From Planctomycetota bacterium (GTDB taxonomy: Bacteria; Planctomycetota; B15-G4; JADJEK01): DNA of 64,000 nucleotides. Positions within the stretch are counted from its first letter, which is position 1. Every line of letters begins with the position of its first letter. Below are positions 6,777 through 27,298 of the stretch, in pieces. The position numbers and the translations under genes are program-made. The notes under the pieces are model-generated. The model was not told where the DNA came from. It ran no database searches and saw nothing but the letters and a program-made list of their open reading frames with translations. The stretch spans positions 16,937-80,936 of the forward strand of contig JBGAIQ010000025.1 in assembly GCA_044225365.1 (NCBI GenBank), in the 5' to 3' direction.

Positions 6777-9700
6777 CGCACCACCAATTCGGAGAGCGCG
6801 CTCGACGACCAAGCGACGATTCCGGGACGATACAAAGCCTCGCAGCGAGCCGGAGGGATTTCATACGCTCCGCGGAACGTCGCACGGATCGGGTACCGCA
6901 GCTCGAAGTCCCCCGCGGGGAGGTGATCGACGAAGAAGAAAGCGCCTCCGTCGCGGATCTCGACACGGTCGGTCGCGATCCCGCTCACGCGATTCTCGCC
7001 TTCGCAACCGGCGGCGATCGAGTCGATGATGGCCACACCATCGACGTCGCGTTCGGCGTGTCCGCGCAGAACCACTTCGTAGAGTCGGCCGCGTTCGATC
7101 GCCGCACCCGGCAGGATCGGCAAGTCGTCGGGAACATTGTGGATCGTGCGGCGGATCGTGAGATCCGCGGACGCAGACTTCGACGGCGGGGCACGCCGCC
7201 CCACCACCTCGAAGACGCCGAACACCGGGCCATCCGCCCCCACCACGATCGACTCACCGCCGCGCAGAGTCGCCGTCCAGTCGAGCGATTCTCCCCCGGG
7301 GCCGTTCGACAGAGAGCGCTCGATGCGATTCCCACCCACCGTGATCGTCAAGTTCACCCGCAAGTCCTTGGACTGCGGAAGACCGAAGGCCGCGAAGTAC
7401 GTGCGCAGCGCGAGCAGGCCGTGAGCCATCTCGTACGTCGTGAGCTGCTTCGGGTCCTCGAGACGGGGGAGGAGTCGCGCGGCGATGGCGTCGACGTGGG
7501 AATCCTTGGGATCGACGACGAGCCAGGTGCGCAGTTCGAGAGCAGAAGAGACGAATGCCGAGCCCAAGGATCCCAATGAATCGCCCAGTGAATTCGATGA
7601 TCTGTCGTTCACGATCGAGGGCTCACCCGCCGCCGGCGCTGGAGAAGCCACCGCGCCGAGCGAGCCGAGCAATAGGGCCCGTGCGCGTTCGCGCTCGCCC
7701 GCTCGCGCGAGCGCAAGAGCCGCGCGGATCCGGGCATTGCGGACCTTGCTGCGCGCGGCGCGCTCGATCGCTGGCCGCGATGGAATGCCTGCTCGCCCAG
7801 CGAGGTCGGCCGCCGTCGCGGCGATGAGCGGATCCTCGCTGTTCGCGAACTCTCGAGCGGCATGCGCGGCGGCACGCTTCAACGCGCCCTCGGGTACGGG
7901 GAACCCGCGATCGGAGAGTTCGAGCATCGCTTCGAGTGCGTGCAGCGTCGGAAGCGGGTACTCCTCTGCGGAATCGCGCCAGAAGCTGAATCCACCGGCT
8001 GCGGTCTGCGCCGAGAAGATCTTCTGGAGTCCGACGTGGACGAACGCGTCGAGTGCGACCCGCTCCTTGCCTTCGTCGCCGTCGCCGACCAGGGTCATGT
8101 GGGCCGCTCCGATCCTCGCGAGGAGTTGCGACGAGACCTGCTCCGTGCATCCGTACGGGTAATCGAGGAGCTCTCGCTCCGCGGCGGCGAGTCGCGATTC
8201 CTGATGTCCGTCGAGGACGAGGCGAACACGGACGTTCCCTTCGAACGAAGGATCGACCGTCAACGTGCGCTCGGAATCCGAGCCGAAGGCGATGGCCTCA
8301 CGCGAAGTCGTGATAGGACGCTGCGGCGCGATCGAGAACGCCGCGACGACCGTGCGTTCGAAAGCGCCGAGCTTGCCCTGCACGCGCACTTCGCCACGCG
8401 AAAGGGCGACCCTCGCATCGCTCGTCTCCTGATCGTCGACGAGCACGGGAACGTACAACGTGCGTTCCTCTCCGATCGCGAGCGGCACGCGGATCGTCGG
8501 GCCGGAACCCGAGAGCGCGAGATTCTCGCCGCAGGCGATGTCGAGCGTCAGATCGCCCGCGACACCTGTCGAGTTGCGCACCGTGACGGGTACTTCGAAG
8601 CGATCGCCGCGACGCACCACGTGGGGCGTCGACATCGCGATCGAGAGCGGCGCCTTCACGATCGTCTCGGCGAAATCGCAGCCGAATCGCTGCGCGCCGC
8701 TGGCGATCGCAATGAGCGCGAGGCGCCCTTCGTAATCACGCGCCGCCCCGAGATCGAGCTGTACCGTGGCTTCACCATTCGCGTCGAGATCGACTCGGCG
8801 CATGAGCACGACGCTGCGCTGGTCGACGCCTGTCGCTTCGATCCGTCCCGCCGCGATCGAATCGAAATCGCCGTCACCGCCGGGGGCGCTCACGTCGAAG
8901 ATCGCACCGTGGCGCAGCGCCAGCGCGGAGTCGGCGCCTCGCGAGTCGAGGCGCCGCTTCGCGAGGAAGAACTCGCGCGGATCGGCCGCCGGCGAGGCTG
9001 CGCCGAACAAGGCCCCGCGGTCGACCGCGAGCACGACGCATTCACTGCCCGGTCCGAACCGCGTCGCGTGGACCTTCGCCTCGAGCATCGAACCTGGTTC
9101 GACCGCGCGCGGGGCCTCGAGCGTGAGGGCGCCGACGTGTTCCGCACAATCGATCTCGATCACCGTCGAGCAGGAGAATAGGGACGCGCGATCGGCGTCC
9201 TCCGGCGAACCGCCCATCTCCTTCTGCGGTCGCGCCAGCGTCGCGATCACGTAGGCCGAGGGCGGCAGCCCGTTCCTCGGCAGATCGATGGCGACCTGGT
9301 TCTTCCCGGCCTCCAGCACCGCGCGAGTCGCCGCGTGGATTCCTCCGCCTTCGACCGTGATGAGCGCAACGCCCTTCATCGGGGAGTCGATCTCGAGCGG
9401 AATGCGGTCGCCCGGAGCGAAGCGATCACCGAGGGCGGTGAGGACCAGTTCGTCGGGACGCGGGGCGGACGACGTGACAGGGACGTCGACGCGACGGTCC
9501 TGCGAGCCGACCGAGATGAAGAGGGACCCGTAACCGGGGTCGCCGATCACGCCGAGTTGCGCGGCGTCGACGTGCGCTGCGCCGTTTCGAATGGTCACGT
9601 CGACCTTCTTCACGACGCTTCTCGTCTCCACGTATCGCTCGGACCGTGGACGAACATGCACCCGACCGCGCCTCCCCATCGACGCGCCGATCTCGAGAGG

Positions 9701-12346
9701 AACGCCTCCGGTCCATTCGTACGAGCGCCGCACGAGTTCGACCACGACCGTGAGTTCGCTACGGTATGGAGACAAAGACGCGGACGACCCGCCCACGAGC
9801 GCGACGAGGTCGAGGCCATCTTTCGTCCAGCGCGCCCCGATGCGGTAGTCCTTCGGCAGTACTTCTCCTTCCAGCGAGCGTGTGACGACGCGTCCGCCCG
9901 GATCCTCCACCTCGATCGTCGCGAGCGCGCGCAGGAATTGCCCCTTCGTCTCCGGCGATGCAGGCGACAACGGCGGCACGTCGAACTCGACGCGCGCGTG
10001 GCCGGCTTCGTCGAGCGCCGTGGTGATCGAGGGCAATGCTCCGTGTCGCGGATCGGCGAGGTCCGCCGACTCGAACACACCGCCGAACTCGAATCCGCTC
10101 TCGTCGACGAACGACTGCGGCGAGAGATGCACGCTGACCGTGGCTCGCGCGGAGACGAGCGGAGCACCCGACAACCAATGAGCATCGATCTCGATCGCGC
10201 CACGCGATCCGAACGCGAGCGCTTCCTCGAACTTCGCGGCGACCTCGATGCGCGGCGGAGTGACCGTCGCGACGCGGAACGAAGTGCCGCCGATCGACTG
10301 CTCGGTCGCAGCATCCTGAACGTCGACTCGCCAGTATCCGAGCGGATCGCTCGGATCCGTCGCCACGTCGAACACGAGGATGCCGCCCGCGCTCGGGTCG
10401 AGTCGTTGATCGCCGCGCACGCGCTGCGCCGGGTCGTACCACTTCACGCGCAGAGGCCGCCGCGACGCCGCGAGGGTGTCGTCCCGCACCAGGGCGACGA
10501 CGTGTGCAGACTCGCCCGGACGCACGATCCCGCGATCGGTCGCGACGAACGCCTCGAGCTGGCCCTTGCGAAGGTAGTCGCGCTCGGCGGCGTCGGCAGC
10601 GAAGACCGACCCATTCGCGCAAGGATCGACCTCGAAGTGCGAGAGATCGACGAATGCCGTGTCCTCGTCCTTCCTGGCGACGACGCAGAACGGCGTCTCG
10701 TCGCCCACGAAGGCGAGCATCGCGAATCCTCGCTCGTCGGTCACTCCCTGCGCCAGGCGTTGATTCGTCTTCGACAACAATTCGACCGATGCGCCGCTCG
10801 TGGGCGCGCCGCTCGCGAGCGACGCCACATGGACGAGCGCGGACTCGCGCGTCGCACGGAACGCGATTCGCAGATCCGTGATCGCGATGAGCTCCCGCTG
10901 CACGCGCCACTCCTGCTCGCGATCGAACACTTCGACGAGGAACATCCCGCGCGGCGGTTTACCGAGCATCTCGCGGAGATCGACTCGTTGCTCGAAGCGG
11001 GTGTTTCGCGCGGCCGAGATCGGAAAGGTGCGTTCGACGAATCCGCCGCTGAATGCGGGATCCGGGTCGCTGTCGGCCGAAGAACGCTGCTGGCGGAGGA
11101 AATGGAGGGCGTTGTTGTCGTAGACCTGCTTCGCTCGCACCACGACCGTCTCGACGTTCATCCCGAAGACCGCGATCTCGGGGCGCGCCAGCGACGACAG
11201 CACGATCCCGTCGTCGACGAAGCCGACCGTCGGCTCGGAATCCGCGATGCGCACCGGCAGAAGCAGCGCCTTCTCGAGACGCGCGAGTCCCTTGCCCGGG
11301 AATCCCGCAGCCAGCGTGACCGTGTAGGTCTCGCCAGGTTCGAATTGGCCGGTCAGCCGCACACCGGAGAGCCCGATGCGGAAAAGCGAGAAGTCGACTC
11401 TCGGTTCGAGCGTGATCCACGGAGCATCGGGATCGACGATCTGCCGATCGAACATCACGTCGATGCGATCGCTCGTGCCCGCCACCGACTCGATTCCGAG
11501 CGGAGCGACGAGATCGACACGCCATTCGTTTTCGGTCGACTCGAGAGGCACGTCGCCCTCTCGCGCACGCAATGTGTCGGCGATCGCAACCCGGACTACG
11601 TTGGGCGCCCCATCGCCAAGACGAATCTCGAATCCCGAGACGATGCCGATCGCATCGCGATCACCTACTTCGTCCCCGCCTTCGGTGGCGTCGACGACGA
11701 GGTCGCGGACCTCACGGGTGAGTTCCTTGCCCGCCTCGTCCCGCACGAGGAGCGCGCGATCGAGAGCGGCGAGATCCAGCCTCATGTCGAATCCGACGAA
11801 GAACCGGCGCACGCTCGCATCCTGCTCGAGCGCGGCGACGGCCGCGACCCGCGGTCCCGCAGTCGCGAATTCGCTCGTCGTTCCCGTCTCGACGAGGCCG
11901 AATTCGGTCCGTAGGTCGCGCTTCACGACCAGCTTGAAACGACGTGCACGCGGCAGAGGGTTCTCGAGGACGAGCGTGATGCGATCGAAAGGATGCGCCG
12001 TGTCCGTCGCGACGCTCGCCTTGCGCAGGGCGAACGGATTCGCAACGGGATCCGCCTTTGCGTTGGCGGAGACGAGGTCGAACGCGGAAGCGTCGAGCGC
12101 TTCGAACGTGCTGGCCTCGAGCTTCGTCGCGAAGTCGATCACGATGCGTTCGCGCGAGGCGTCGTTCGGATCGCGTTCGACGCGCGTTCGCATCGCCGAC
12201 GGCCGAAGGCGAAGGAGATCGACGCCGCAGGGATCGGGACCGGTCACGGTCGATCGTCCGGCGAGGAAGCAGAGGAGTCCGAGAGCAATGAAACGAAACG
12301 ACGAAGGAGTCGCCGCGAGCCGCGCGGCGAACGAGGAGAGGCGCAT
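6773..12346 (-). CDS. Bacterial alpha-2-macroglobulin (MG2/YfhM family), ~1857 aa
   Basis: Thioester motif YPYGCTEQ; TDRGIVRPGE; C-terminal 'YPIRATFRGAYEIPPARCEALY'. Start chosen at MRLSSF (signal-peptide-like). Confidence 0.92.
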   Translation of the reverse strand: MRLSSFAARLAATPSSFRFIALGLLCFLAGRSTVTGPDPCGVDLLRLRPSAMRTRVERDPNDASRERIVIDFATKLEASTFEALDASAFDLVSANAKADPVANPFALRKASVATDTAHPFDRITLVLENPLPRARRFKLVVKRDLRTEFGLVETGTTSEFATAGPRVAAVAALEQDASVRRFFVGFDMRLDLAALDRALLVRDEAGKELTREVRDLVVDATEGGDEVGDRDAIGIVSGFEIRLGDGAPNVVRVAIADTLRAREGDVPLESTENEWRVDLVAPLGIESVAGTSDRIDVMFDRQIVDPDAPWITLEPRVDFSLFRIGLSGVRLTGQFEPGETYTVTLAAGFPGKGLARLEKALLLPVRIADSEPTVGFVDDGIVLSSLARPEIAVFGMNVETVVVRAKQVYDNNALHFLRQQRSSADSDPDPAFSGGFVERTFPISAARNTRFEQRVDLREMLGKPPRGMFLVEVFDREQEWRVQRELIAITDLRIAFRATRESALVHVASLASGAPTSGASVELLSKTNQRLAQGVTDERGFAMLAFVGDETPFCVVARKDEDTAFVDLSHFEVDPCANGSVFAADAAERDYLRKGQLEAFVATDRGIVRPGESAHVVALVRDDTLAASRRPLRVKWYDPAQRVRGDQRLDPSAGGILVFDVATDPSDPLGYWRVDVQDAATEQSIGGTSFRVATVTPPRIEVAAKFEEALAFGSRGAIEIDAHWLSGAPLVSARATVSVHLSPQSFVDESGFEFGGVFESADLADPRHGALPSITTALDEAGHARVEFDVPPLSPASPETKGQFLRALATIEVEDPGGRVVTRSLEGEVLPKDYRIGARWTKDGLDLVALVGGSSASLSPYRSELTVVVELVRRSYEWTGGVPLEIGASMGRRGRVHVRPRSERYVETRSVVKKVDVTIRNGAAHVDAAQLGVIGDPGYGSLFISVGSQDRRVDVPVTSSAPRPDELVLTALGDRFAPGDRIPLEIDSPMKGVALITVEGGGIHAATRAVLEAGKNQVAIDLPRNGLPPSAYVIATLARPQKEMGGSPEDADRASLFSCSTVIEIDCAEHVGALTLEAPRAVEPGSMLEAKVHATRFGPGSECVVLAVDRGALFGAASPAADPREFFLAKRRLDSRGADSALALRHGAIFDVSAPGGDGDFDSIAAGRIEATGVDQRSVVLMRRVDLDANGEATVQLDLGAARDYEGRLALIAIASGAQRFGCDFAETIVKAPLSIAMSTPHVVRRGDRFEVPVTVRNSTGVAGDLTLDIACGENLALSGSGPTIRVPLAIGEERTLYVPVLVDDQETSDARVALSRGEVRVQGKLGAFERTVVAAFSIAPQRPITTSREAIAFGSDSERTLTVDPSFEGNVRVRLVLDGHQESRLAAAERELLDYPYGCTEQVSSQLLARIGAAHMTLVGDGDEGKERVALDAFVHVGLQKIFSAQTAAGGFSFWRDSAEEYPLPTLHALEAMLELSDRGFPVPEGALKRAAAHAAREFANSEDPLIAATAADLAGRAGIPSRPAIERAARSKVRNARIRAALALARAGERERARALLLGSLGAVASPAPAAGEPSIVNDRSSNSLGDSLGSLGSAFVSSALELRTWLVVDPKDSHVDAIAARLLPRLEDPKQLTTYEMAHGLLALRTYFAAFGLPQSKDLRVNLTITVGGNRIERSLSNGPGGESLDWTATLRGGESIVVGADGPVFGVFEVVGRRAPPSKSASADLTIRRTIHNVPDDLPILPGAAIERGRLYEVVLRGHAERDVDGVAIIDSIAAGCEGENRVSGIATDRVEIRDGGAFFFVDHLPAGDFELRYPIRATFRGAYEIPPARCEALYRPGIVAWSSSALSELVVR

Positions 12347-12474
12347 GGGGTTCCCGTGGGAGGAGCGCGACACGCCGGGGCCGCACCAGCGTCCGGAGGG
12401 AAACGGACGTGGGGCGGGAATGCCGAGAGTGTCGTGGAGCCAACCGCTGCGACGAGTGTAGGCGCTCCTCGACT

Positions 12475-12495
12475 CTGTCAACATGCTGTCAACAT
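12475..12495. promoter_or_regulatory. 11-bp-period direct repeat CTGTCAACAT-G-CTGTCAACAT (Pho-box/OmpR-family-like site)
   Basis: Exact 10-mer tandem repeat; reads TTGACA twice on the minus strand upstream of A2M. Confidence 0.45.
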
Positions 12496-12778
12496 CCCGC
12501 CCATCAACGAAGCGGCCCATAGCACACGGCGAACGGCCAGCTCCGTCCAGGTAGCGAAGTTCAGGCAATGGCGGACGGGTGTTCCGCGCTCTCGAATGCC
12601 GCGAGGGCTTCGAACCTTCGCACCTACTCGAAAACATCGTCGGCGATCGAGTGCGGCTTGAATCAATTCGCCGCAGGATCCGCGCGACCACCACAAAGGC
12701 TGATTTGGATTCATCTAATGGCAATCAATTGTCCGGGGGTTGTCCGGGGTTCGAGGCGAACTGGGTATGCTCGCAGCG

Positions 12779-14658: not shown

Positions 14659-16248
14659 ATGAGACCGAGGACCTACTTCTTCGCCGCGGTCGCGATCCTC
14701 GCGCTGGTCGCCTTCGCCCTCTACGAGTCCTCGTCGCGCGTCGCCGTCGACCGCGAGCCACGCACGCCGACGCCCTCGCCTTCGCTCACGGCGCCGCATC
14801 TCAGAAGCGATGGAAGGGCCGACGAACTTCGTGATCCGCAGCCGAGCGTCGCGCGAGAAGAAGCGGTTGCCGCGCCGCTCGTCGCGCCGATGCCCGGGGC
14901 GACGAGCGGCAGCGTCGTCGTCCATTTCACGAGCAAGGGCGCTCCCGTCGCGAATGTCGGCATCCGCCTCACGCAGCCGGTGAATCGCGCGGGGATCGAC
15001 GCCCCGCAGCGTGAATCGACCGACGCGGACGGCATCGCGCGCTTCGACGAAGTACCGCCGGCCTCGTACGTCGTGCGCTGCGATCGCGGCCCCTCGCCAA
15101 GGGTCCAGGTCGTGGCCGGCGAGGAGTCGCGGGTCGAGATCGCGATCGACGATGGCATCGGAATCGAAGGCCGCGTCGTGGACGAGAAGGGACAGGCCGT
15201 CGCGGGCGCCGACGTCTTCCTCTCGCGCTTCGGCCAGTGGGAGGAGGACGCGGTCGTCGCCACGTCGCGGACGGACGGCGCGTTCGACATCGCGGGTCTC
15301 GTCGGGAACAACCACATCGGGGCCCGCAAGGCCGGCTACGCGCCATCGGCATTGTTGCGCATCCGCGACTCATCGGGGGCCGAGAACGCACCGAATGCGC
15401 AGGAGAAGTTCACGCTCACGCTCGTGACCGGCGGTTCGGCGATCTTCGGCCGAGTGACCGACGCGAATGGGCAGGCCTGCGCTCACGCACGGGTCATCGT
15501 GGATCCCGACACCACGTACTCGAACCCGACGGAGGATGGCAGCCTGCGCCGGCACGAACGATGGATGTTCACGGCAAGCGATGGCAGCTATCGCGTGGAA
15601 GGCCTCGAACCCGGAATGCACTCGATCTCGTTCCGCGCACAGGCGATGGCTCCGCATCGCCAGGAATGCACGACCCCGCGCGATGGCGCGACCGAAGTGA
15701 ACGTCGTTCTGCGAATGGGCGCGGTGATCTACGGCATCGTGACCGATCCCGCCGATCCAATCGGCCGATGCGTCGCAGGGGCGCAGATCTCGGCCGAAAC
15801 CGGGTTCTTCAGTGAATCGTCGTTCGCCACGTCGGACGCGCAGGGCGCCTACCGCTTCGATTCGCTTCCTGCGGGTGAGATCAAGATCGCGGCGACCACG
15901 GCGAACGCGCCGCGGTCCGAGCAGAAGGCGACGACGATCGAGGGTCAGGCGACACGCGTCGACATCACATTGCGAGTGACCCTCGAGTTGAAGGGGCGCG
16001 TCGCCGATGTCGCAGGTGGTCCGATCAAAGGCGCGCGAATCTGCGCCATCTCGACGCAGGAGTCCACCCTGTGGGTCCGCGAGACGCACTCGACCGACGA
16101 TGGATCGTTCTCATTCACCGGTGCACCCGACACACCTCTGCGACTCATCGCCTACTGGCCCTCCGATCCGGCGTCGCGCGGCGCCGAGAAGGACGACGTC
16201 CGCGCCGACAAGGGCGAGATCGTGATGGTTCTGAAGAACGGCCCGTGA
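14659..16248 (+). CDS. Carboxypeptidase-regulatory-like repeat protein (membrane-anchored)
   Basis: N-terminal TM helix; repeated 'I.GRVVD..G.PVAGA.V' and 'TD.DG.Y....L..G' units. Confidence 0.8.
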   Translation: MRPRTYFFAAVAILALVAFALYESSSRVAVDREPRTPTPSPSLTAPHLRSDGRADELRDPQPSVAREEAVAAPLVAPMPGATSGSVVVHFTSKGAPVANVGIRLTQPVNRAGIDAPQRESTDADGIARFDEVPPASYVVRCDRGPSPRVQVVAGEESRVEIAIDDGIGIEGRVVDEKGQAVAGADVFLSRFGQWEEDAVVATSRTDGAFDIAGLVGNNHIGARKAGYAPSALLRIRDSSGAENAPNAQEKFTLTLVTGGSAIFGRVTDANGQACAHARVIVDPDTTYSNPTEDGSLRRHERWMFTASDGSYRVEGLEPGMHSISFRAQAMAPHRQECTTPRDGATEVNVVLRMGAVIYGIVTDPADPIGRCVAGAQISAETGFFSESSFATSDAQGAYRFDSLPAGEIKIAATTANAPRSEQKATTIEGQATRVDITLRVTLELKGRVADVAGGPIKGARICAISTQESTLWVRETHSTDDGSFSFTGAPDTPLRLIAYWPSDPASRGAEKDDVRADKGEIVMVLKNGP

Positions 16249-16303: not shown

Positions 16304-18940
16304 GTGACCGAAGAGAACGCACCCCAGAAACTGAGGATCGCCGACGACAAGCCGCTCACTCCGGCGATGGCGCAATACCATCGGTGGAAGACGGCGCATC
16401 CGGACTGCATGCTCTTCTTCCGGATGGGCGACTTCTTCGAGTTGTTCTACGAGGACGCAAAGCGCGCCGCCGACGACATCGGCCTCACGCTCACGTCCCG
16501 CTCGAAGGGACCGGATGCCGTGCCGATGGCCGGCGTTCCCGTGCGCAACGTCGATCACTACCTGAAGAAGCTCGTCACCCTCGGCCACCGTGTCGCGATC
16601 TGCGATCAGATCCAGGATCCGAAGGAGGCCGACGGCGTCGTTGATCGCGCGGTCATCCGCATCGTGACCGCCGGCACGCTGACGGAGGACGACCTCCTCG
16701 ATCGCGCTCAGGCGAACTACCTCGCCGCGATCGCGATCCACAAGAGCAAGACGGCGGGCATCGCGTTCCTCGACGTCTCGACCGGCGAGTTCGGCGTCGA
16801 AGAATGCGCGGAGGGCGACATCGTCGACTCGCTCACGCGACGGAACGCGGCCGAGGTGGTCCTGCCCGAGTCCCTGCGCGACGCCCCCATCGCGGCGCAT
16901 CTGAAAGCGGCAGGCATCAAAGCGATCACGCTGCGGCCCGATTGGGAGTTCGAGAAGAACTCCGCGCTCGAGGCGATCGCCGAGCAATACGGCGTCACGA
17001 CGCTCGACGGTTTCGGACTCGACGCGGAGTCCCCGATCGCGCAGGCCTGCGGTGCGGCGCTGCGTTACGTCTCCCTCACGCAGAAGACGAAACTGAAGAA
17101 CCTCGCTCCGCCGCGACTCGACGCGACGACGCGACGGCTCGTACTCGATCGCGCGACGCGCGCCTGCCTCGAGCTCACGCAGACCGCGCGCGATGACCGC
17201 CGCGAGGGGTCGCTGCTCCACGTACTCGACGACACCCGCACCGCCCTCGGCGCTCGCCGCCTGCGGGAGTGGCTTCTCGCACCACTCGTCGCCGTCGACG
17301 AGATCGCGGCGCGCCAGGCCGCTGTCGCGGAGTTCGTGGGCTCGCGGGATTCGCGCACCGACCTCGCCGCGCTGCTCTCGCAGATCGGCGACATCGAACG
17401 ATTGCTCTCGCGAATCGTCACGCGCCGAGCGAACGCTCGCGACACCGTCGCCCTCCGCGCCGCTCTCCGCACGGTTCCCGCGCTGCGCGCCGCGCTCGCG
17501 TTCGCGAGCTCCGCCGAACTCGTGCGGACCCGCGACCGGCTCGATCCGCAGAGCGATCTCCTCGTCCTCCTCGAGGGCGCGATCGCCGACGAGCCGCCGC
17601 TCACACTTCGCGAGGGCGGCATCATCCGCGACGGCCATTCGACAGAACTCGACGAACTGCGCGGCATCCATCGCGACGGCAATCGCTTCCTCGTCGAGTA
17701 TCAGCAGCGGGAGATCGAACGCTCGGGGATCCAGAACCTGCGCGTCGGCTTCAACTCCGTCTTTGGGTTCTACATCGAGATCACGAACTCGTGGAAGGAT
17801 CAGGTCCCTCCCGACTACATCCGCAAGCAGACGCTGAAGAACTGCGAGCGGTACATCACACCCGAACTGAAGGAGTACGAGAGCAAGGTCCTGAACGCGG
17901 AAGAACGCGCCAACAAGCTCGAGTTCGAGTTGTTCGAGAACGTTTGTTCGAGGATCACGGCGGCCCAGGACGCGTTGAAAGCGACCGCGTCGGCGATCGC
18001 CGATCTCGACGCGCTCTTGTCGCTCGCGAGCGTCGCACAGCTCCACGGCTGGACGCGACCCGTGGTCGACGAGGGCGACGAACTCGTGATCGAGGATGGC
18101 CGCCATCCCGTCATCGCCCATCTCATCGGCCAGGCGAACTTCGTCCCGAACGATGCGCGGCTCGACGGCAAGGAGCGGCGCCTCGCGATCGTGACGGGCC
18201 CCAACATGGCGGGCAAGTCGACCTTCATCCGCCAGGTCGCGCTGATCCAGATCCTCGCCCAACTCGGCAGCTTCGTGCCCGCGAAGGCCGCACACGTCGG
18301 CGTCGCCGATCGAGTGTTCGCTCGCGTCGGGGCGTCGGACGACCTGTCGCGCGGCCACAGCACGTTCATGGTCGAGATGACCGAGACTGCGAACATCCTG
18401 AACAACGCGACGAAGAAGAGCCTCGTGATCCTCGACGAAGTCGGACGCGGGACGTCGACGTTCGACGGAATGGCGCTCGCCTGGGCGATCTCGGAGCACC
18501 TGCTCCTCACGATCGGCGCCCGTACCCTCTTCGCGACGCACTATCACCAACTGATCGATCTTTCCGGGGTGCATCGAGGCGTGATCAACCTGTCGGTCAC
18601 CGTCCGCGAATGGGGCGACGAGATCGTCTTCCTGCATCGAATCGCCGAGGGCGGTCTCGACAAGTCGTACGGCATCCACGTCGCTCGCCTCGCAGGCGTT
18701 CCTCGCGCGGTGCTCGAGCGCGCCGCGGCGATCCTGCTCGATCTGGAGAAGCAGGCGCCGGAGCTTCAGCCGTCGTCCCACGGAGCCCGCGCGGCCGCGC
18801 CCCCGAAGAAACAACAAGCGCTGTTGTTCGAGTCGAGCGAGCAGGAAGTGGCACGCGATCTCAAGAAGCTCGATCTCGATCGACTCTCGCCGATCGAGGC
18901 CCTCCTGAAGCTCCAGGAGTTGAAGAAGAAGCTCTCGTAG
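16304..18940 (+). CDS. mutS: DNA mismatch repair protein MutS
   Basis: TPAMAQY, FFRMGDFFELF, TGPNMAGKST, STFMVEM, DEVGRGTST, ATHYHQL and SYGIHVA motifs. Confidence 0.98.
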   Translation: MTEENAPQKLRIADDKPLTPAMAQYHRWKTAHPDCMLFFRMGDFFELFYEDAKRAADDIGLTLTSRSKGPDAVPMAGVPVRNVDHYLKKLVTLGHRVAICDQIQDPKEADGVVDRAVIRIVTAGTLTEDDLLDRAQANYLAAIAIHKSKTAGIAFLDVSTGEFGVEECAEGDIVDSLTRRNAAEVVLPESLRDAPIAAHLKAAGIKAITLRPDWEFEKNSALEAIAEQYGVTTLDGFGLDAESPIAQACGAALRYVSLTQKTKLKNLAPPRLDATTRRLVLDRATRACLELTQTARDDRREGSLLHVLDDTRTALGARRLREWLLAPLVAVDEIAARQAAVAEFVGSRDSRTDLAALLSQIGDIERLLSRIVTRRANARDTVALRAALRTVPALRAALAFASSAELVRTRDRLDPQSDLLVLLEGAIADEPPLTLREGGIIRDGHSTELDELRGIHRDGNRFLVEYQQREIERSGIQNLRVGFNSVFGFYIEITNSWKDQVPPDYIRKQTLKNCERYITPELKEYESKVLNAEERANKLEFELFENVCSRITAAQDALKATASAIADLDALLSLASVAQLHGWTRPVVDEGDELVIEDGRHPVIAHLIGQANFVPNDARLDGKERRLAIVTGPNMAGKSTFIRQVALIQILAQLGSFVPAKAAHVGVADRVFARVGASDDLSRGHSTFMVEMTETANILNNATKKSLVILDEVGRGTSTFDGMALAWAISEHLLLTIGARTLFATHYHQLIDLSGVHRGVINLSVTVREWGDEIVFLHRIAEGGLDKSYGIHVARLAGVPRAVLERAAAILLDLEKQAPELQPSSHGARAAAPPKKQQALLFESSEQEVARDLKKLDLDRLSPIEALLKLQELKKKLS

Positions 18941-18976: not shown

Positions 18977-20596
18977 TCACCGGGAGATGCGGATCGTGCG
19001 CGGAGGGCGGCACGTCTCGAGGTTGCACACGGTGTAGATGAGGTCGGCCACGAACGAATCGCCGGGAGCGACGCGTTTCAGCGGAATACGGATGTCGCAG
19101 TAACCGGTGATCTCGCCGCGCGCATCCGCCCGCGGCGAGAATTCGGCCGCGAGCGCGAATGACGAGCCTTCACCGATCCGCAACTGCACTCCGCGCGCTT
19201 CGTCCGTGGGCGGATAGAGATGCCACCCGCTGCGGATGCTGATCACGATGCTGAGCTCGCTCGAAGTCGCCTGCGCTTCGATCCGCACCGGATCGTCCGC
19301 GGACATGCCTTCGACGCGCAGGACGACGCTCTTCGCCCGTTGCCCTTGGGCGCGCCACTCGTAGCCGCCCGTCTCCGTGAAGTAGAGCTTCCCCTCGTTC
19401 GCCGTCACCCAGTTCTTCAGATCCTGCGGTTCGACGCCGGGTACGTAACGCTTCACGAGCTTCGTCGCGAGATCGTCCTTCGGGTCCTTCTCCAAGCGAT
19501 CGATCAATGCTGCGAGGAACTTCTCGTCGGAGTTGCCGACCCCGAGCGCCTTGCACTCCGCATCGACCTCGAGCTGGTATTTCGCCATCGGACCCGAACC
19601 GCTCGCCTTGCGGAGGAAGGGGCGCCGTTCCTCGAACCACCGCTTCGACGCCTCGCGATCCTTCACGACCTCTTCGGGAACCCGCTCGCCGCAGATCGTG
19701 CGCTCGATCGCGTCGCGCAGGCCGTGCTGCTCCTCGTAAACCTTGCGCCAGACGAAGAGCACATCACCGAGTCCGTCCCGGGGCTCGTACTCGCGCAGCG
19801 ACTCCACGAAGCGGCCTCGTGACTTCGCCGCATACGCGATCGCGTTGAGGAAGAGCCGCTCTCCGGCCGGCGTGAAGCCGTCGGCGCGCCCTTGAAATCC
19901 CCACATCACGAACGAGCCATGACGGGCGACGGCGGCATAGCGTGGCCCCTTCATGTTGATGCCGCCGAGGATCCTCTCCGCATCCGGCGAGTCCTCGAAT
20001 CCGTGGTTGCTCGTGACGAGGCCAGGCTCGGAGAACTTCTCCCTGAAGATCGAGAACGTCTTCACCGTGTCGCCGAAGTCCGGCTCGAACATCTTGAAGT
20101 TGTCGGGAGTCTTCGTGTCCTCGAACTCGATGGCGACGGGAAACGGCTTGCTGAGGATCTCGTGTTCGGGCCGTAGCACGACGGCCTGATGATTCAGGCA
20201 GAGTCAGCCATACTGCCACGAGGTCTTCAGCTTGAAGGAATCCGAGACGAAGCCGCCTTGCCCCCCGACGAGGACGACGGGGAATCCCTGCAGATCGTCG
20301 AGCGTGAAGCCAATCTTCTCGCCCTTCAAGCCTTTCAGCTTCCCGTCGGAATCGAGTTCCTCGACCTCGCCGCCGATGACGAGCACGTCCACATCGGCGA
20401 GATCGGCGGTTCGAAACTCCGAGAGCGACAACGTGCGTACGGACTGCGCGTGCTCTTCGAAGAAGCGGCGATAGGTATCGGTATAGGGCGTGCCTGCATT
20501 GCCCGCGTAGAGCACCCGCAACGGCAACTTCAGGGCGTCGCCCGCGTCCCCGGCCGCGACCCCGAGGAGGACACTCAGAACGAGGGGAATGAGCAT
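18977..20596 (-). CDS. Putative exported selenoprotein (539 aa, Sec at codon 131 in a U-L-C motif) with C-terminal DsbD-N-like domain
   Basis: Track ORFs 20204-20719 and 18977-20179 are in the same frame, joined by TGG CAG TAT GGC TGA CTC TGC CTG. GAGGA RBS and signal peptide at 20596. C-terminus has 'GWHLY...YTVCNLETCRPP'. Confidence 0.75.
20169..20186 (-). promoter_or_regulatory. Candidate bacterial SECIS hairpin
   Basis: GGCCGU-CGUGCU-ACGGCC. Stem starts 17 nt and loop 23 nt after the in-frame UGA (20206-20204), with GU at loop positions 2-3. Confidence 0.65.
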
Positions 20597-20747
20597 TTCA
20601 ATTCCTCGAACGTGGAGATCGGGCGAAACACCGGAACACGGCCGGGCCGATTCTACTCGAACGCGCGGGTTCCCCGAGCGGATGAAGTCACGCCACCAAA
20701 AGCACGCGACCGCATCCAACCACCGGTCGGATGCGGCCGCATTCGTA

Positions 20748-20822
20748 TGGAGCGGGTGAAGGGGATTGAACCCTCGACAACAACGTTGGCAACGTTGTGC
20801 TCTACCACTGAGCTACACCCGC
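20748..20822 (-). tRNA. tRNA-Gly (GCC), CCA encoded
   Basis: GCGGGTGTAGCTCAGTGGTAGAGCACAACGTTGCCAACGTTGTTGTCGAGGGTTCAATCCCCTTCACCCGCTCCA folds as a cloverleaf. Confidence 0.97.
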
Positions 20823-21070
20823 GAGCACGGTTCTCGTGCCTCGCCGCCACGGTGTTTCCACCGAACAAGCGAGCGGAGGAGTCTAGCAGGCAATGCGACC
20901 GAGACAAGCGGCGTCGGGGGCCAAAAATGTAGGGCCTGACCTCCGCTCGGAAGACCGGAACAGGGGGGCTTTCGAGTCGCTCGTCGCGTTCGGTTACAAT
21001 GGCCGCGTCTTGCGTGGGATCCACGCGGTCTGCCCCGCGCCCTCGAAGCACGAGATCGACGAGAAAAGCC

Positions 21071-25024: not shown

Positions 25025-27298
25025 ATGCGAACCCTTGCGAAGAGCTTGATCCCCATGTTGCTCGTGACGGCGCTCGCGGCGACCGCGCGCGCGGAAGGCG
25101 GCTATCTCGGCGTCACCATCAACGACGCCGAAGGCGGGATCCAGATCCTGACGGTCCGAGACGCGTCGGCCGCCGCGGCCGCCGGTGTGAAGTCCGGCGA
25201 TGTCGTACAGGCGATCGGTGAGACGAAGATCGCGAACCTCGACGACTTCCAGAAGCAGCTCGCCAAGCTCTCCGCGGGCGACAAGATCACCCTCAAGGTG
25301 AAACGCGGCGAGGCCAACGAGACCTTCGAAGTCACCCTCGGAAAGCGCCCGGGCGAGAGCGTCGCGACGACGACGACCGTGTCCAGCGAGCCCAAGGCGG
25401 CCCATTCCGGAAACGCGATTCCGGCGACTCCGCTCATCGCGGCTCCGGTCGAACCCGCCCCTGCGCAGGCCCCGGCCGCTCCCGCTCCTCCGGCAAAAAC
25501 GGGCGGATCGATCACGAGCAACGTAAGCCTCAAGGCCGCGCCGGGTGGCGCGGGGCTCGGTATTTCGACCGCCACCGCGGCGCCGCCGCGCAAGGGCGGA
25601 TTCCTCGGCGTCACCCTCGAAGGTGGTGACGGCGCGGACAACACGATCTCGTCGGTCGTCGACGGCGGCCCCGCCGCCAAAGCCGGCATCAGCAACGGCG
25701 ATCAGATCGTTGCGATCGATGGCAAGACCGTCGCGAGCGCGAGCGACATCAGCGGCTACCTCGCGACGAAGCAGGCCGGCGATTCGGTCGAGATCACGGT
25801 GATGCGCGACGGCAAGCGCAAGCTGCGGACGGCGACACTCGCCGCTTATGGCAAGATCGGTTTCGCTGCGGGCCCGGGCAACACCGTGGGCGGGATTCAG
25901 CTCTCCGCGCCGGCCGAGGTGCCTGAGAAGGCCAGTGACAACGAGAAACCCAAGACCGCTGCGGGCGGCATGCGCGCAAAGCGCGCCGAGAATGCGAACA
26001 AGGCCACGGCATCCAAGAAGTCCGGCGGTCGCGGCTGGCTCGGTGTCATGCTCGAGGGCAACGACGGCGCTCCGATCGTCTCGGAGCCGACCGAGAACAG
26101 CCCCGCGGCGAACGCCGGGATCAAGGCCGGAGACGCGATCGTCCAGGTCGGCGACCAGCAGATCGAGAGCACCGAAGATCTGCTCGCAGCGCTCGACGGC
26201 AAGGCGGGCCAGGACGTCGCCGTCGTCGTGAAGCGCGGCGGAGCGACGAAGAAGTTCGGGATCACGCTGGGCGACGTCCCCGCCGAGCACGCGGTGGCGG
26301 AAGCCAACGAACCGAATGAACCCATGCCGAAGGCGACACCGAAGGCGAAGATGGATGCCACGGTGAAAGCGGCCCACGAAAGCACGGAGCGCGCGATCAA
26401 GGCGGCGAACGAAGACGCTTTGAAGGCGAAGAAGCGGGTCGACGAGCAGGTCGCGAAGGCCCGCGAGGAAGCGAAGATGGTTCGCGAACAGGCCGCCGAA
26501 GCGCGCGAGAAGGCCGCGAAGGCGCGCGCCGAGATTCGCGACCGAGTGGGCAAGGGAGCGCCGGCGGAATCGACGGCGACGACCGAGCGTTCGCGCTGGT
26601 TCTTCCCGATCGGCAAGGAGCTCCCGCTCCGTGTCGAGAAGAAGAAGGGCGACATCTGGATCACCACGGGCGCCGGCTCGCAGGGCATCCTGGTGCCGCA
26701 GGACGGCAGCACGAGCGTCACCCTCGAAGCGAAGGGCGACGGAGTCGAGGTCGTCGTCGGCGGAGGCCAAACCGCTGGCGAGGTCCACACGTTCACGTTC
26801 AGCCCCGAGATGGGCAAGAGCGGGGACGGCAAGTCGTTCTTCAAGGTCGAGATCCCGAGCGTCGGTGACGCGAAGGTGATGACCCGTCACAAGGACGACG
26901 ACGACGATGATGACGACGACGCGGACGATGACGATGACGACCATGAGCACGGCCACACCGATCACGGAATGGCTCACGGCAACGGCGTCTTCGTCCTCGG
27001 CGGCGGCGACATTCCCCATCACGAGATCGTCGTCGAGAAGGGCCACGACCTCGTCGTTCCGCATCCGCCGGTCGCGGGCGGCGGCGGCATCATCATCAAC
27101 AACAACGGCGGCACGGTGATCATCGGCGACTCGGCGATCAAGCTCCGCGCTGCGCATGGCGGCGAGAAGCGAATCGACGTGCTCATGAAGGACGGCGACG
27201 CCGACGCCAAAATGAAGACGCTGAAGGAACTCGGCTACATCGGCGAGAAGGCCGAGAAGAAGGCGAAGAAAGCCGAGAAGAAGAAGGACAGCAACTGA
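25025..27298 (+). CDS. Secreted multi-PDZ protein with coiled coil and Asp/His-rich tail
   Basis: Signal peptide; three PDZ units (GYLGV, GFLGV, GWLGV ... PAA.AGI..GD.I); no trypsin domain. Confidence 0.85.
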   Translation: MRTLAKSLIPMLLVTALAATARAEGGYLGVTINDAEGGIQILTVRDASAAAAAGVKSGDVVQAIGETKIANLDDFQKQLAKLSAGDKITLKVKRGEANETFEVTLGKRPGESVATTTTVSSEPKAAHSGNAIPATPLIAAPVEPAPAQAPAAPAPPAKTGGSITSNVSLKAAPGGAGLGISTATAAPPRKGGFLGVTLEGGDGADNTISSVVDGGPAAKAGISNGDQIVAIDGKTVASASDISGYLATKQAGDSVEITVMRDGKRKLRTATLAAYGKIGFAAGPGNTVGGIQLSAPAEVPEKASDNEKPKTAAGGMRAKRAENANKATASKKSGGRGWLGVMLEGNDGAPIVSEPTENSPAANAGIKAGDAIVQVGDQQIESTEDLLAALDGKAGQDVAVVVKRGGATKKFGITLGDVPAEHAVAEANEPNEPMPKATPKAKMDATVKAAHESTERAIKAANEDALKAKKRVDEQVAKAREEAKMVREQAAEAREKAAKARAEIRDRVGKGAPAESTATTERSRWFFPIGKELPLRVEKKKGDIWITTGAGSQGILVPQDGSTSVTLEAKGDGVEVVVGGGQTAGEVHTFTFSPEMGKSGDGKSFFKVEIPSVGDAKVMTRHKDDDDDDDDDADDDDDDHEHGHTDHGMAHGNGVFVLGGGDIPHHEIVVEKGHDLVVPHPPVAGGGGIIINNNGGTVIIGDSAIKLRAAHGGEKRIDVLMKDGDADAKMKTLKELGYIGEKAEKKAKKAEKKKDSN

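Follow-up and report, generated by a model that had tools for sequence, protein, structure and literature searches.

Known Redox Selenoproteins and Related Systems

The selenoproteins of prokaryotes are at present divided into 119 families or subfamilies in Table 1 of PMC13188914 (2026), and the predicted redox proteins listed there include DsbA-like, DsbG-like, thiol:disulfide interchange and Trx-like Sec.2 ("UxC") selenoproteins. Selenoproteins of this UxxC/UxC type have a SECIS element in the coding region directly after the UGA codon, combine Sec with a nearby Cys, have Cys-containing homologs elsewhere and probably carry out an extracytoplasmic redox function. The protein described in this work, which is encoded within a 64,000-nucleotide stretch of Planctomycetota DNA (referred to here as the window), is similar to them in these respects. 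However, no thioredoxin fold and no Pfam or NCBIfam match to these proteins was detected in it, its motif is U-x-C rather than U-x-x-C, and at 539 aa it is much larger. The ThuA/GATase1-like proteins, including the CTP-synthase-related GATase selenoprotein, resemble it in strand motifs recognized by eye and in the placement of a Cys or Sec after a hydrophobic strand, but the motif of the GATase selenoprotein is G-x-U-x-G whereas that seen here is U-x-C-L, and HHalign provides no support for homology. A further system of relevance is nDsbD, the module through which DsbD hands on electrons in the periplasm. The C-terminal ~105 residues of the window protein align with nDsbD (PF11412; structures 1l6p, 1jpe, and 3pfu), and both redox cysteines and the PP that follows are common to the two. 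In DsbD, nDsbD is joined to membrane and thioredoxin-like domains, whereas here the corresponding region is fused to a soluble, predicted catalytic protein, and the cysteines are spaced C-x4-C in place of the C-x5-C of nDsbD.

No exported protein of ~400–540 aa with a U-x-C-L motif is present among the 119 entries of Table 1 in PMC13188914. In searches against the Pfam/NCBIfam/TIGR-type models that correspond to the families in this table, the window protein had no match in NCBIfam at E ≤ 1 and its sole match in Pfam was to DsbD_N. The family is also not described in the searched text of PMC13188914, PMC12013277, PMC13326102, PMC4807772, PMC5029168, and PMC9312934, the supplementary tables of which (BSepDB S2, deep-Sep S2, and PMC4807772 S9) could list it. 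These results agree with an earlier note on this DNA, in which the family was not recognized among the described selenoproteins. From the sequence comparisons reported below, we consider it highly probable that this locus contains a genuine SECIS-dependent selenoprotein gene belonging to a family that is not yet described. The mechanism of Sec insertion would be standard; it is the family that would be new.

The Gene and Its Reading Frame

Positions 20596 to 18977 of the window, read on the minus strand, constitute one gene for a 539-residue protein, which is predicted to be exported on account of a signal peptide recognized by eye. The sole internal stop in this frame is a TGA at codon 131, in the context SWQYG-U-LCLNHQAVVLRPEH. 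In the list of open reading frames, the gene is split into two parts, viz. 20204..20719 (minus strand), which stops at this TGA, and 18977..20179 (minus strand), a 400 aa frame with a GTG start. The main features of the gene are as follows:

18977..20596, minus strand: predicted selenoprotein gene, complete, 539 codons and a TGA stop (18977–18979), read through UGA codon 131
20603..20607, minus strand: ribosome-binding site GAGGA, 6 nt 5' of the ATG (20594–20596), as read from the sequence
20534..20596, minus strand: predicted signal peptide (~residues 1–21), MLIPLVLSVLLGVAAGDAGDA, as judged by eye
20204..20206, minus strand: UGA codon 131, predicted to encode Sec, first residue of U-x-C; TGA or Cys in the aligned homologs
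20198..20200, minus strand: Cys133, presumed resolving partner in U-x-C, invariant in an alignment of 83 sequences

Direct reading of the DNA bears out what the earlier note had claimed for this region, i.e., one frame of 539 aa with a TGA at codon 131, a GAGGA ribosome-binding site and a signal peptide on the upstream half, and a downstream GTG that lacks a ribosome-binding site and sits inside a hairpin. The GAGGA sequence is present, the N-terminus resembles a signal peptide by eye, and the GTG (20177–20179) lies in the loop of the hairpin, with no ribosome-binding site seen before it. The N-termini of the homologs are likewise hydrophobic, and a lipobox-like L-x-x-C is found in 7 of the 83 family members. 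The TGA codon was also held to be an ordinary stop, and since the gene's own stop (18977–18979) is a TGA, at which the C-termini of the homologs align, there is no change of the genetic code. The neighbors of the gene in the window are a tRNA-Gly on one side and a convergent mutS; an Rfam scan of positions 19900–20900 gave a match to tRNA-Gly alone.

Homologs of the Protein and the Residue at Codon 131

Across 108 homolog segments, the codon aligned with codon 131 is TGA in 38, all from Planctomycetota, Cys in 67 from Bacteroidota or Opitutaceae, and something else in the remaining three. The alignment-based scan for loci made use of two patterns, and because one of these (CLCL...) is biased toward Cys forms, the 67:38 ratio is no estimate of their frequencies. 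A sample of 401 Planctomycetota genomes is free of this bias. Among the matches listed for it, 33 of the 34 that span residue 131 contain exactly one in-frame TGA, and at 27 of the 28 loci that were fetched the aligned TGA is part of U-x-C-[L/M], the remaining one having Pro. Only Sec forms and degenerate forms, and no Cys forms, were found in the sampled Planctomycetota. The homologs with TGA are spread over many Planctomycetota families, with 23–48% identity, and those from Bacteroidota contain the sequence DW[YL]-C-L-C-L-D at this site. Thus, the "W.CLCL" given in the earlier note for Bacteroidota proteins is real, and Cys or TGA is seen where the earlier note had named Trp, Arg or Gly as residues that would speak against Sec.

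Protein searches gave a corresponding picture. Of 43 matches, 40 (including the open reading frame from the window itself) are 400–411 aa long, cover 73–75% of the query and are cut at the same site, and the other three are full-length, distant proteins with Cys at position 131. Similarly, the best 150 of 1,335 representatives comprise 100 with Cys at this position, 46 that start at or just past the Sec column, and four others. For the family alignment, the 105 segments with U or C yielded 95 complete open reading frames, from which 12 near-duplicates (≥80% identity) were dropped to give 83 sequences; the three segments that lack both U and C were excluded. Both U/C131 and C133 are invariant across these 83 sequences, and in the three degenerate copies both motif residues have been lost together, a pattern which fits a redox pair.

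Core Region, DsbD_N-Like Domain, and Predicted Function

Apart from the signal peptide, the following parts of the protein can be distinguished:

19322..20533, minus strand: predicted catalytic/core region, ~residues 22–425 (~400 residues), from the 83-sequence alignment
18992..19303, minus strand: DsbD_N-like domain, residues 432–535, with GWHLY; weak in Pfam for this protein alone, solid at the family level
19025..19027 and 19010..19012, minus strand: C524 and C529, putative redox pair in YTVCNLETCRPP, aligned to the nDsbD cysteines

Within the core region, U/C131, C133, P151, E207, G212, K216, G233, N251, D345, Y384, and G411 are invariant, H145 is nearly so, and the motifs GFEDSPDAE and RHG.F..WGF are present. 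The core regions of the window protein and of the 83 family members matched no family in Pfam, NCBIfam or the PDB, and when the PDB sequences were searched with the family profile the matches were limited to the DsbD_N part. In the ESM Atlas, a natural Cys homolog used as the query retrieved only unnamed clusters from Bacteroidota (score 0.84). Separately, two weak matches to PF07090 were observed in the host genome.

The earlier note had likened the C-terminus to DsbD-N, and this is upheld for the family but remains weak for the window protein taken alone. The latter matches DsbD_N (PF11412) with 13 bits (E 0.11), the Pfam cut-off being 25, whereas 41 of the 83 family members have Pfam matches to this domain at E ≤ 0.01 (best 3.7e-16), and the family profile matches nDsbD 1l6p with an E value of 1.2e-4 and both cysteines aligned. 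The domain is C-terminal in six of the Sec forms and N-terminal in one, and an N-terminal position is also suggested for three genomes by the 401-genome sample. That the fusion recurs and has been shuffled points to a functional link. The domain is not obligatory, however, as 23 of 30 Sec forms and, judging by the motif, 25 of 53 Cys forms lack it.

A mechanism that could account for this arrangement is as follows. The UGA at codon 131 would be decoded as Sec by the standard bacterial route: a SECIS hairpin, the 5' stem of which starts 17 nt past the UGA, would recruit SelB together with Sec-tRNA(Sec). Sec131 and Cys133 would form a U-x-C redox center in the catalytic region of ~400 residues, to which the C-terminal DsbD_N-like domain would most likely bring reducing equivalents from a membrane DsbD/CcdA-type system. 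With such a relay, the protein would work in the periplasm, where it would reduce or isomerize disulfides or a similar oxidized substrate; its export, redox chemistry, direction of electron flow and substrate are all predictions. We put forward this specific relay tentatively, and would give it somewhat less than an even chance. No conserved neighbor, including a gene for a redox partner, was found beside the Sec forms.

Copper chaperones hold Cu(I) through C-x-C motifs, and the U-x-C of a selenoprotein could instead serve to bind or transfer a soft metal(loid) such as Cu(I), Hg, Zn or Se/S species, the DsbD_N-like domain then having a ScsB-like role in metal stress. The entries in the table of PMC13188914 include a U-x-C selenoprotein of Cu/Zn efflux (SO_0444 family) and several metal-binding selenoproteins, and a "putative metal resistance protein" (6c29, E 0.3) is among the weak PDB matches of the C-terminal domain. 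However, both redox cysteines of nDsbD have been kept, no metal-transport or resistance genes were found to recur beside the family members, and the Bacteroidota Cys forms are located in SusC/SusD nutrient-uptake loci, so that a metal-related function appears unlikely.

It is also rather improbable that Sec131 or Cys133 is, instead of being part of a redox pair, the covalent nucleophile of an α/β domain similar to ThuA or the class I glutamine amidotransferases. Such a domain is suggested by a pattern recognized by eye (LRVLYxG, DVxIxDG, PxxxIG, C-L-C-L, HPIF, and RHGNFxxWGF), by the (near) invariance of H145 and E207, and by the existence of the GATase selenoprotein with its GxUxG motif, as listed in PMC13188914. 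However, a comparison by HHalign with 21 ThuA domains gave a probability of 2.8% (E 0.016, 41 columns), and Pfam matches to GATase or ThuA (PF06283) were found in none of the 83 members. Additionally, the invariance and joint loss of the motif cysteines fit a redox pair, to which the DsbD_N fusion also points.

Selenocysteine Machinery and the Probable SECIS Hairpin

The host genome carries selA (486.6 bits), selB (346.5 bits), a selD of the Sec type with an in-frame TGA of its own (361.5 bits), and selC, i.e., a tRNA-Sec(UCA) that scored 68.5 bits and was confirmed by ARAGORN. The machinery whose absence the earlier note had regarded as fatal to a selenoprotein is therefore present. In the sample of Planctomycetota, selA was detected in all 28 genomes with the TGA form vs. 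290 of the 401 genomes overall; it was found in none of five genomes with the Cys form.

The hairpin that had been proposed to follow the UGA, with its loop 23 nt past this codon, can be read directly in the window:

20169..20186, minus strand: candidate SECIS hairpin GGCCGU-CGUGCU-ACGGCC; 5' stem 20181–20186, loop 20175–20180, 3' stem 20169–20174

The distance of 23 nt is counted from the A of the UGA. For comparison, the limits used by bSECISearch are reportedly a loop located 16–37 nt from the UGA and a G among the first two nucleotides of the loop. When the 60 nt from the window were folded alone, the hairpin was not exceptional (z = -1.14; 24 of 200 shuffles folded equally well), and the minimum free energy (MFE) structure favored a competing hairpin that is not conserved; the assignment as a SECIS element hence rests on comparative evidence. 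The MFE z-scores for the 45 nt past the codon did not separate Sec forms (mean -0.84) from Cys forms (-0.74; p = 0.47), and for this reason a positional test was adopted, which requires a stem of at least 6 contiguous bp without bulges, closing a loop of 3–8 nt that starts 23–29 nt from the U of the UGA. A stem of this kind is present in 30 of 38 Sec forms and in 7 of 67 Cys forms (1 of 15 when only high-GC Cys forms are considered), and at 35 of 304 control positions within the same Sec genes. By this measure, which does not allow for bulges, a stem of at least 6 contiguous bp is missing in eight of the 38 Sec forms.

In an ungapped alignment, 68.5% of the cells are paired vs. 55.5% in shuffles, and the covariation score is 0.298 vs. 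0.136, neither observed value being reached in any of 500 shuffles. The stem contains compensatory changes, and slid registers gave at most 48.6% paired cells and a covariation of 0.205. The hairpin is thus kept, with covariation, in the TGA forms and is absent as a class from the Cys forms, and both it and the TGA are, by their conservation and the control counts, more than chance. Part of the RNA conservation is driven by the protein, as the 5' stem and the loop overlap the conserved A-H-G codons. RNAalifold predicted no structure from the ungapped alignment, a likely reason being that the clades are not alike in loop length and in bulges. A covariance model scored the Sec forms at 41–79 bits (one outlier at 26 bits) and the Cys forms at 12–55 bits; it recognizes the latter also because the coding sequence is conserved, and its alignment was left unused. 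Within this lineage, selD and further genes with SECIS elements have a GC-rich stem of 6–9 bp and a C-G-[G/U]-G-N loop, as does the family, in which the loops CGGGA, CGGGC, and CGUGCU match those of the lineage's selD elements (CGUGA, CGGGC, and CGUGU). This common loop type implies the use of the same SelB. The loop starts 26–35 nt from the U of the UGA in the selD-type elements vs. 23–27 nt in the family, and the SelD protein itself is unrelated to the family protein.

In view of these observations, there is only a very small probability that the UGA is read through with Trp, Cys or Arg by a near-cognate tRNA, or is subject to a local change of code, in place of being decoded as Sec. The homologs without TGA have Cys, as is characteristic of Sec/Cys pairs, the TGA is followed by a hairpin of the SECIS type whose loop resembles that of the lineage's selD, TGA forms are confined to selA-positive genomes in the sample, and TGA also serves as the gene's own stop.

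That the locus consists of two genes, one for an exported protein of 130 aa that terminates at the TGA, the other for a 400-aa protein starting from the GTG at 20179, is more doubtful still. This is exactly what gene callers report, and both the ~405-aa piece that makes up most of the database matches and the 46 of the best 150 representatives that begin at or just past the Sec column would accord with it. However, 67 homologs are uninterrupted through the site with Cys, the homologs form one frame that never shifts across the TGA, and their N-terminal part is conserved like the rest. A downstream piece would begin within the hairpin loop with no ribosome-binding site visible by eye, would have no signal peptide, and would leave the invariant C-x-C severed from its domain.

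Lastly, a stop codon within a frame might be erroneous when it comes from only one MAG-type assembly, and the window's hairpin alone is statistically unremarkable. Even so, a nonsense mutation, faulty sequencing or assembly, or a pseudogene can practically be dismissed, as TGA occupies this codon in 38 homologs, which represent many Planctomycetota families, identity to the three closest homologs is similar upstream (49–55%) and downstream (49–52%) of it, and the TGA recurs in independent contigs, viz. those of two runs from what is probably the source sample and one of ~96% identity from a different study, in which the hairpin is also unchanged. None of the sequencing runs listed as carrying the gene is an RNA run.

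Distribution and Significance of the Family

The recognition of this gene as one encoding a probable selenoprotein would add a sizeable family, with 1,335 representative clusters at E ≤ 1e-10, to the bacterial selenoproteome. About a third of the best 150 of these representatives are cut at the Sec codon, and the family is systematically misannotated as a ~405-aa "hypothetical protein." The frequency of selA noted above indicates that the Sec trait is very common in Planctomycetota, a phylum that is not mentioned by name in the searched text of the selenoprotein surveys. The Sec/Cys pair also pinpoints a predicted catalytic residue in an uncharacterized protein that is common, beside SusC/SusD, in gut and soil Bacteroidota, and it thereby offers an experimental handle in tractable genera such as Bacteroides, Flavobacterium, and Pedobacter.

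A broader reading can be offered, which we consider possible but unlikely to hold in all of its parts. The family would be a large one, Sec-only within Planctomycetota, exported, with a previously unseen catalytic fold and the rare U-x-C motif. Sec would be ancestral, the Cys forms of Bacteroidota and Opitutaceae having arisen once by transfer into hosts without Sec machinery, and the protein would carry out the DsbD_N-relayed reduction of a nutrient substrate outside the cytoplasm, such as proteins or peptides rich in disulfides that are imported via SusC/SusD. If this is true, selenium would serve the acquisition of nutrients and not stress defense, which would be a new role for it. The C-G-[G/U]-G-N loop of this lineage could, in addition, sharpen the SECIS models for Planctomycetota.

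Gene Layout and the In-Frame TGA Codon

On the sequence evidence described here, the gene that the earlier note read as a hidden selenoprotein is very probably a genuine SECIS-dependent selenoprotein gene of a family not yet described; it appears to be mis-annotated, and selenocysteine (Sec) would be inserted by the ordinary bacterial mechanism. Its features, in window coordinates, are as follows:

20596→18977, minus strand: candidate selenoprotein gene, a single frame of 539 codons plus TGA stop
20204-20206, minus strand: the only internal TGA, codon 131 (U131), in the context ...KLKTSWQYG-U-LCLNHQAVVLRPEH...
20204..20719, minus strand: upstream piece as gene callers would report it (ORF listing)
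18977..20179, minus strand: downstream piece, 400 aa with a GTG start, as gene callers would report it (ORF listing)
Upstream of the gene, minus strand: GAGGA, 6 nt ahead of the ATG
20169-20186, minus strand: hairpin GGCCGU-CGUGCU-ACGGCC

Translation bore out the single frame proposed in the earlier note, and its other sequence-level statements were also all correct on inspection: the GAGGA ribosome-binding site is present, the N-terminus is hydrophobic and signal-peptide-like (by eye), the hairpin loop starts 23 nt past the A of the UGA, and the GTG of the downstream "ORF" sits within this loop. In the window the gene is isolated between a tRNA-Gly(GCC) directly upstream (20748-20822, minus strand) and a convergent mutS (16304-18940, plus strand). 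Nearby are also a 1,983-aa ORF (6773-12724, minus strand) and proteins with five CarboxypepD_reg repeats (14659-16248, plus strand) and three PDZ domains (25025-27298, plus strand).

Conservation of the TGA Codon and its Pairing with Cysteine

A search of 5.8 billion proteins yielded 43 matches, of which 40, including the window's own ORF, are 400-411 aa long with a query coverage of just 73-75%, as expected if the relatives are all cut at the same stop. Three distant full-length matches (646-652 aa) have Cys opposite U131, in DWY-C-L-C-L-D, in agreement with the W.CLCL motif that the earlier note gave for Bacteroidota homologs. By six-frame search the family was present in 35 of 401 Planctomycetota genomes, and 33 of the 34 listed matches spanning residue 131 keep a single frame with exactly one in-frame TGA; the homologs are thus not two separate genes. 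Of the 28 fetched loci spanning the site, 27 have TGA as the aligned codon and one has a Pro codon, and the motif at TGA loci is always U-x-C-[L/M] (WLULCL, GUTCL, UQCL, UNCL, UICM).

A scan with the alignment, covering one genome for each species, provided 79 further loci. Of the 108 segments in all, 38 have Sec (TGA) at the aligned position, 67 have Cys, and three have another residue; the ratio of 67 Cys to 38 Sec is not a frequency, one scan pattern having favored Cys forms. The TGA forms are all from Planctomycetota, for which no Cys form was found in the unbiased sample of 401 genomes; the Cys forms are from Bacteroidota (Flavobacterium, Sphingobacterium, Pedobacter, Bacteroides, Prevotella, Alistipes, Muribaculaceae, and others) and Opitutaceae. 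All 83 sequences of a non-redundant alignment keep U/C131 and C133. In the three segments with another residue the second cysteine is gone too. Such joint loss is seen in the divergent members L038, L079, and L123 (e.g., WWAATEL, RFSLDLM) and in 4 of the best 150 representative clusters, and these members may be non-catalytic paralogs.

The protein is equally conserved on both sides of the TGA, identity to the three closest homologs being 49-55% upstream vs. 49-52% downstream. The TGA also holds beyond the assembly: two sequencing runs of the probable source sample gave contigs in which the site is identical, and a contig of ~96% identity from a separate study shows 13 differences within 19900-20259, none of them in the TGA or the hairpin.

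A Conserved Hairpin Downstream of the TGA

When the RNA past each TGA was folded, nearly every Sec form showed a hairpin in the same position, with differing stems (GAGGCGCA/UGCGCCUC, CAUGCGCA/UGCGCAUG, UCGCGUA/UACGCGA, ACUGCACA/UGUGCAGU, GGCCGU/ACGGCC) and the loops CGGGA (10), CGGGC (8), CGUGCU (3), and a few others. In a positional test requiring a stem of ≥6 contiguous pairs and a loop of 3-8 nt starting 23-29 nt from the U of the UGA, 30/38 Sec forms were positive vs. 7/67 Cys forms, 1/15 Cys forms with ≥55% GC, and 35/304 control positions within the same Sec genes; the remaining eight Sec forms have stems that are shorter or bulged (bulges by eye). For a single 8-bp register in an ungapped 27-sequence alignment, 68.5% of cells were paired vs. 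55.5% after shuffling, the covariation score was 0.298 vs. 0.136 (0/500 shuffles reaching either value), and double changes occurred at 6/8 pairs. The shuffle control ignores relatedness, for which slid registers correct; their maxima were 48.6% paired and a covariation of 0.205. The 5′ stem and loop overlap conserved A-H-G codons; the 3′ stem codes for variable residues and covaries with its 5′ partner, a pattern beyond explanation by protein constraint. The SECIS-like hairpin suggested in the earlier note is therefore conserved among the TGA homologs.

Two more general folding tests were negative: MFE z-scores of the 45 nt after the codon did not distinguish the Sec forms from the Cys forms (p = 0.47), and RNAalifold predicted no structure from the ungapped alignment. 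The window's own 60 nt folded alone have z = -1.14, and single-sequence MFE prefers a competing hairpin, GCCUGA-AUCA-UCAGGC (20183-20200, minus strand), which overlaps the SECIS 5′ stem and which the three closest homologs do not share.

Selenocysteine Machinery

The genome of the window (6.53 Mb, 103 contigs, 94% complete) contains each of the genes for Sec insertion that had been proposed for checking:

Contig C90:85984-88375: selA (486.6 bits) and the adjoining Sec-type selD (361.5 bits), loci L009 and L018
Contig C66:132448-134334: selB (346.5 bits)
Contig C95:99943-100036: tRNA-Sec with UCA anticodon (68.5 bits; ARAGORN concurs)

This selD provides an independent check on the hairpin: itself a Sec form, it reads SSCAG-U-AAK and has the hairpin GGGGACCU-CGUGA-AGGUCCUC, and selD of five other genomes bearing Sec forms has one in-frame TGA in each, with the loops CGGGC, CGUGU, and CGUGC (the last by eye) and, in two of these genomes, GUC. 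The family's loop type thus recurs in an established selenoprotein gene of this lineage. SelA was found in all 28 sampled genomes with the TGA form, related genomes among them not being independent, and in none of five Cys-form genomes. Its presence in 290/401 sampled Planctomycetota genomes points to a very widespread Sec trait in the phylum; "Planctomyc" does not occur in the word-searchable text of four selenoprotein surveys (PMC13188914, PMC12013277, PMC13326102, PMC5029168), and Planctomycetota may hold further unlisted selenoproteins.

Domains, Size, and Novelty of the Family

The DsbD-N-like C-terminus noticed earlier is the only Pfam match of the protein and is sub-threshold (E 0.11), but 41/83 family members match DsbD_N (best 3.7e-16), and the family profile aligns to nDsbD structures in the PDB (1l6p, E 1.2e-4), matching both redox cysteines and the PP that follows them. 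By motif, DsbD_N is C-terminal in six, N-terminal in one, and absent in 23 of 30 Sec forms, and is found in 28/53 Cys forms; it is thus a recurrent yet optional module. For the other ~400 residues, searches of Pfam, NCBIfam, and PDB sequences gave no match, and the ESM Atlas offered no lead. A ThuA/GATase1-like α/β pattern seemed visible by eye, but HHalign did not support it (probability 2.8%). Cys homologs appear in databases as "DsbD domain-containing protein" or "hypothetical protein."

In a profile search, the number of representative clusters was 4,606 at E ≤ 1e-3 (DsbD_N-only matches included), 1,335 at ≤ 1e-10, and 500 at ≤ 1e-30. Of the 150 best, Cys occupies the site in 100, the motif is lost in four, and 46 start at or just after the Sec column, the last being Sec forms truncated there. 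No such protein is among the 119 prokaryotic selenoprotein families of PMC13188914 (Table 1), in which the U-x-C motif occurs in just two entries, a Trx-like PF13192 protein and the SO_0444 efflux transporter, and NCBIfam release 20, with recent selenoprotein models, gave no match. The family was also not found in full-text searches or in passages of further papers, supplementary tables, which may list it, lying outside this search. As the earlier note had supposed, the family is absent from the published lists consulted (supplementary tables aside); it is large, and its catalytic domain has no counterpart among the Pfam, NCBIfam, and PDB sequences searched.

Genomic Context and Possible Function

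Sec forms have no common neighbor gene. In Bacteroidota, SusD-like and SusC/TonB-dependent receptor genes immediately precede the Cys forms (L051-L128; e.g., L093:628-2241, L081:1-2382, L066:4327-6792). Within 2.5-kb flanks, which give lower bounds, a SusD-like gene adjoins the Cys form in at least 36/66 loci, and SusC-type receptors and, in five loci, M16 peptidases are nearby. These surroundings are a nutrient-uptake context for an uncharacterized C-x-C protein.

Sec takes the place of a catalytic redox Cys, and nDsbD passes electrons to periplasmic partners. The protein would be exported, U131 would attack an oxidized substrate, and C133 would resolve the intermediate as a selenylsulfide; the DsbD_N cysteines could then re-reduce the U131/C133 center with electrons from the membrane DsbD/CcdA system, and members lacking DsbD_N would rely on the cell's own DsbD. 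From the SusC/SusD linkage in Bacteroidota, we speculate that the protein acts on a nutrient taken up by the cell, perhaps disulfide-rich peptides or glycoproteins. As alternatives to this redox role, metal handling seems unlikely, and covalent hydrolase-type catalysis slightly more so.

Evolution of the Sec and Cys Forms

In a FastTree tree (607 columns, motif columns removed, midpoint rooting, no outgroup), all 53 Cys forms formed one Bacteroidota clade, in which three Opitutaceae and one "Paenibacillus" contig (L114) were nested. This clade lies inside the more diverse Planctomycetota Sec forms, and its sister is L046, a 655-aa Sec form; the clade of both had a support of 100, and the exact Sec/Cys split had low support (35). 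A single Sec↔Cys change, in either direction, would suffice. The Cys form of L114, on a Paenibacillus-labeled MAG contig, nests among Muribaculaceae sequences, and this contig is probably mis-binned and not from a member of Bacillota.
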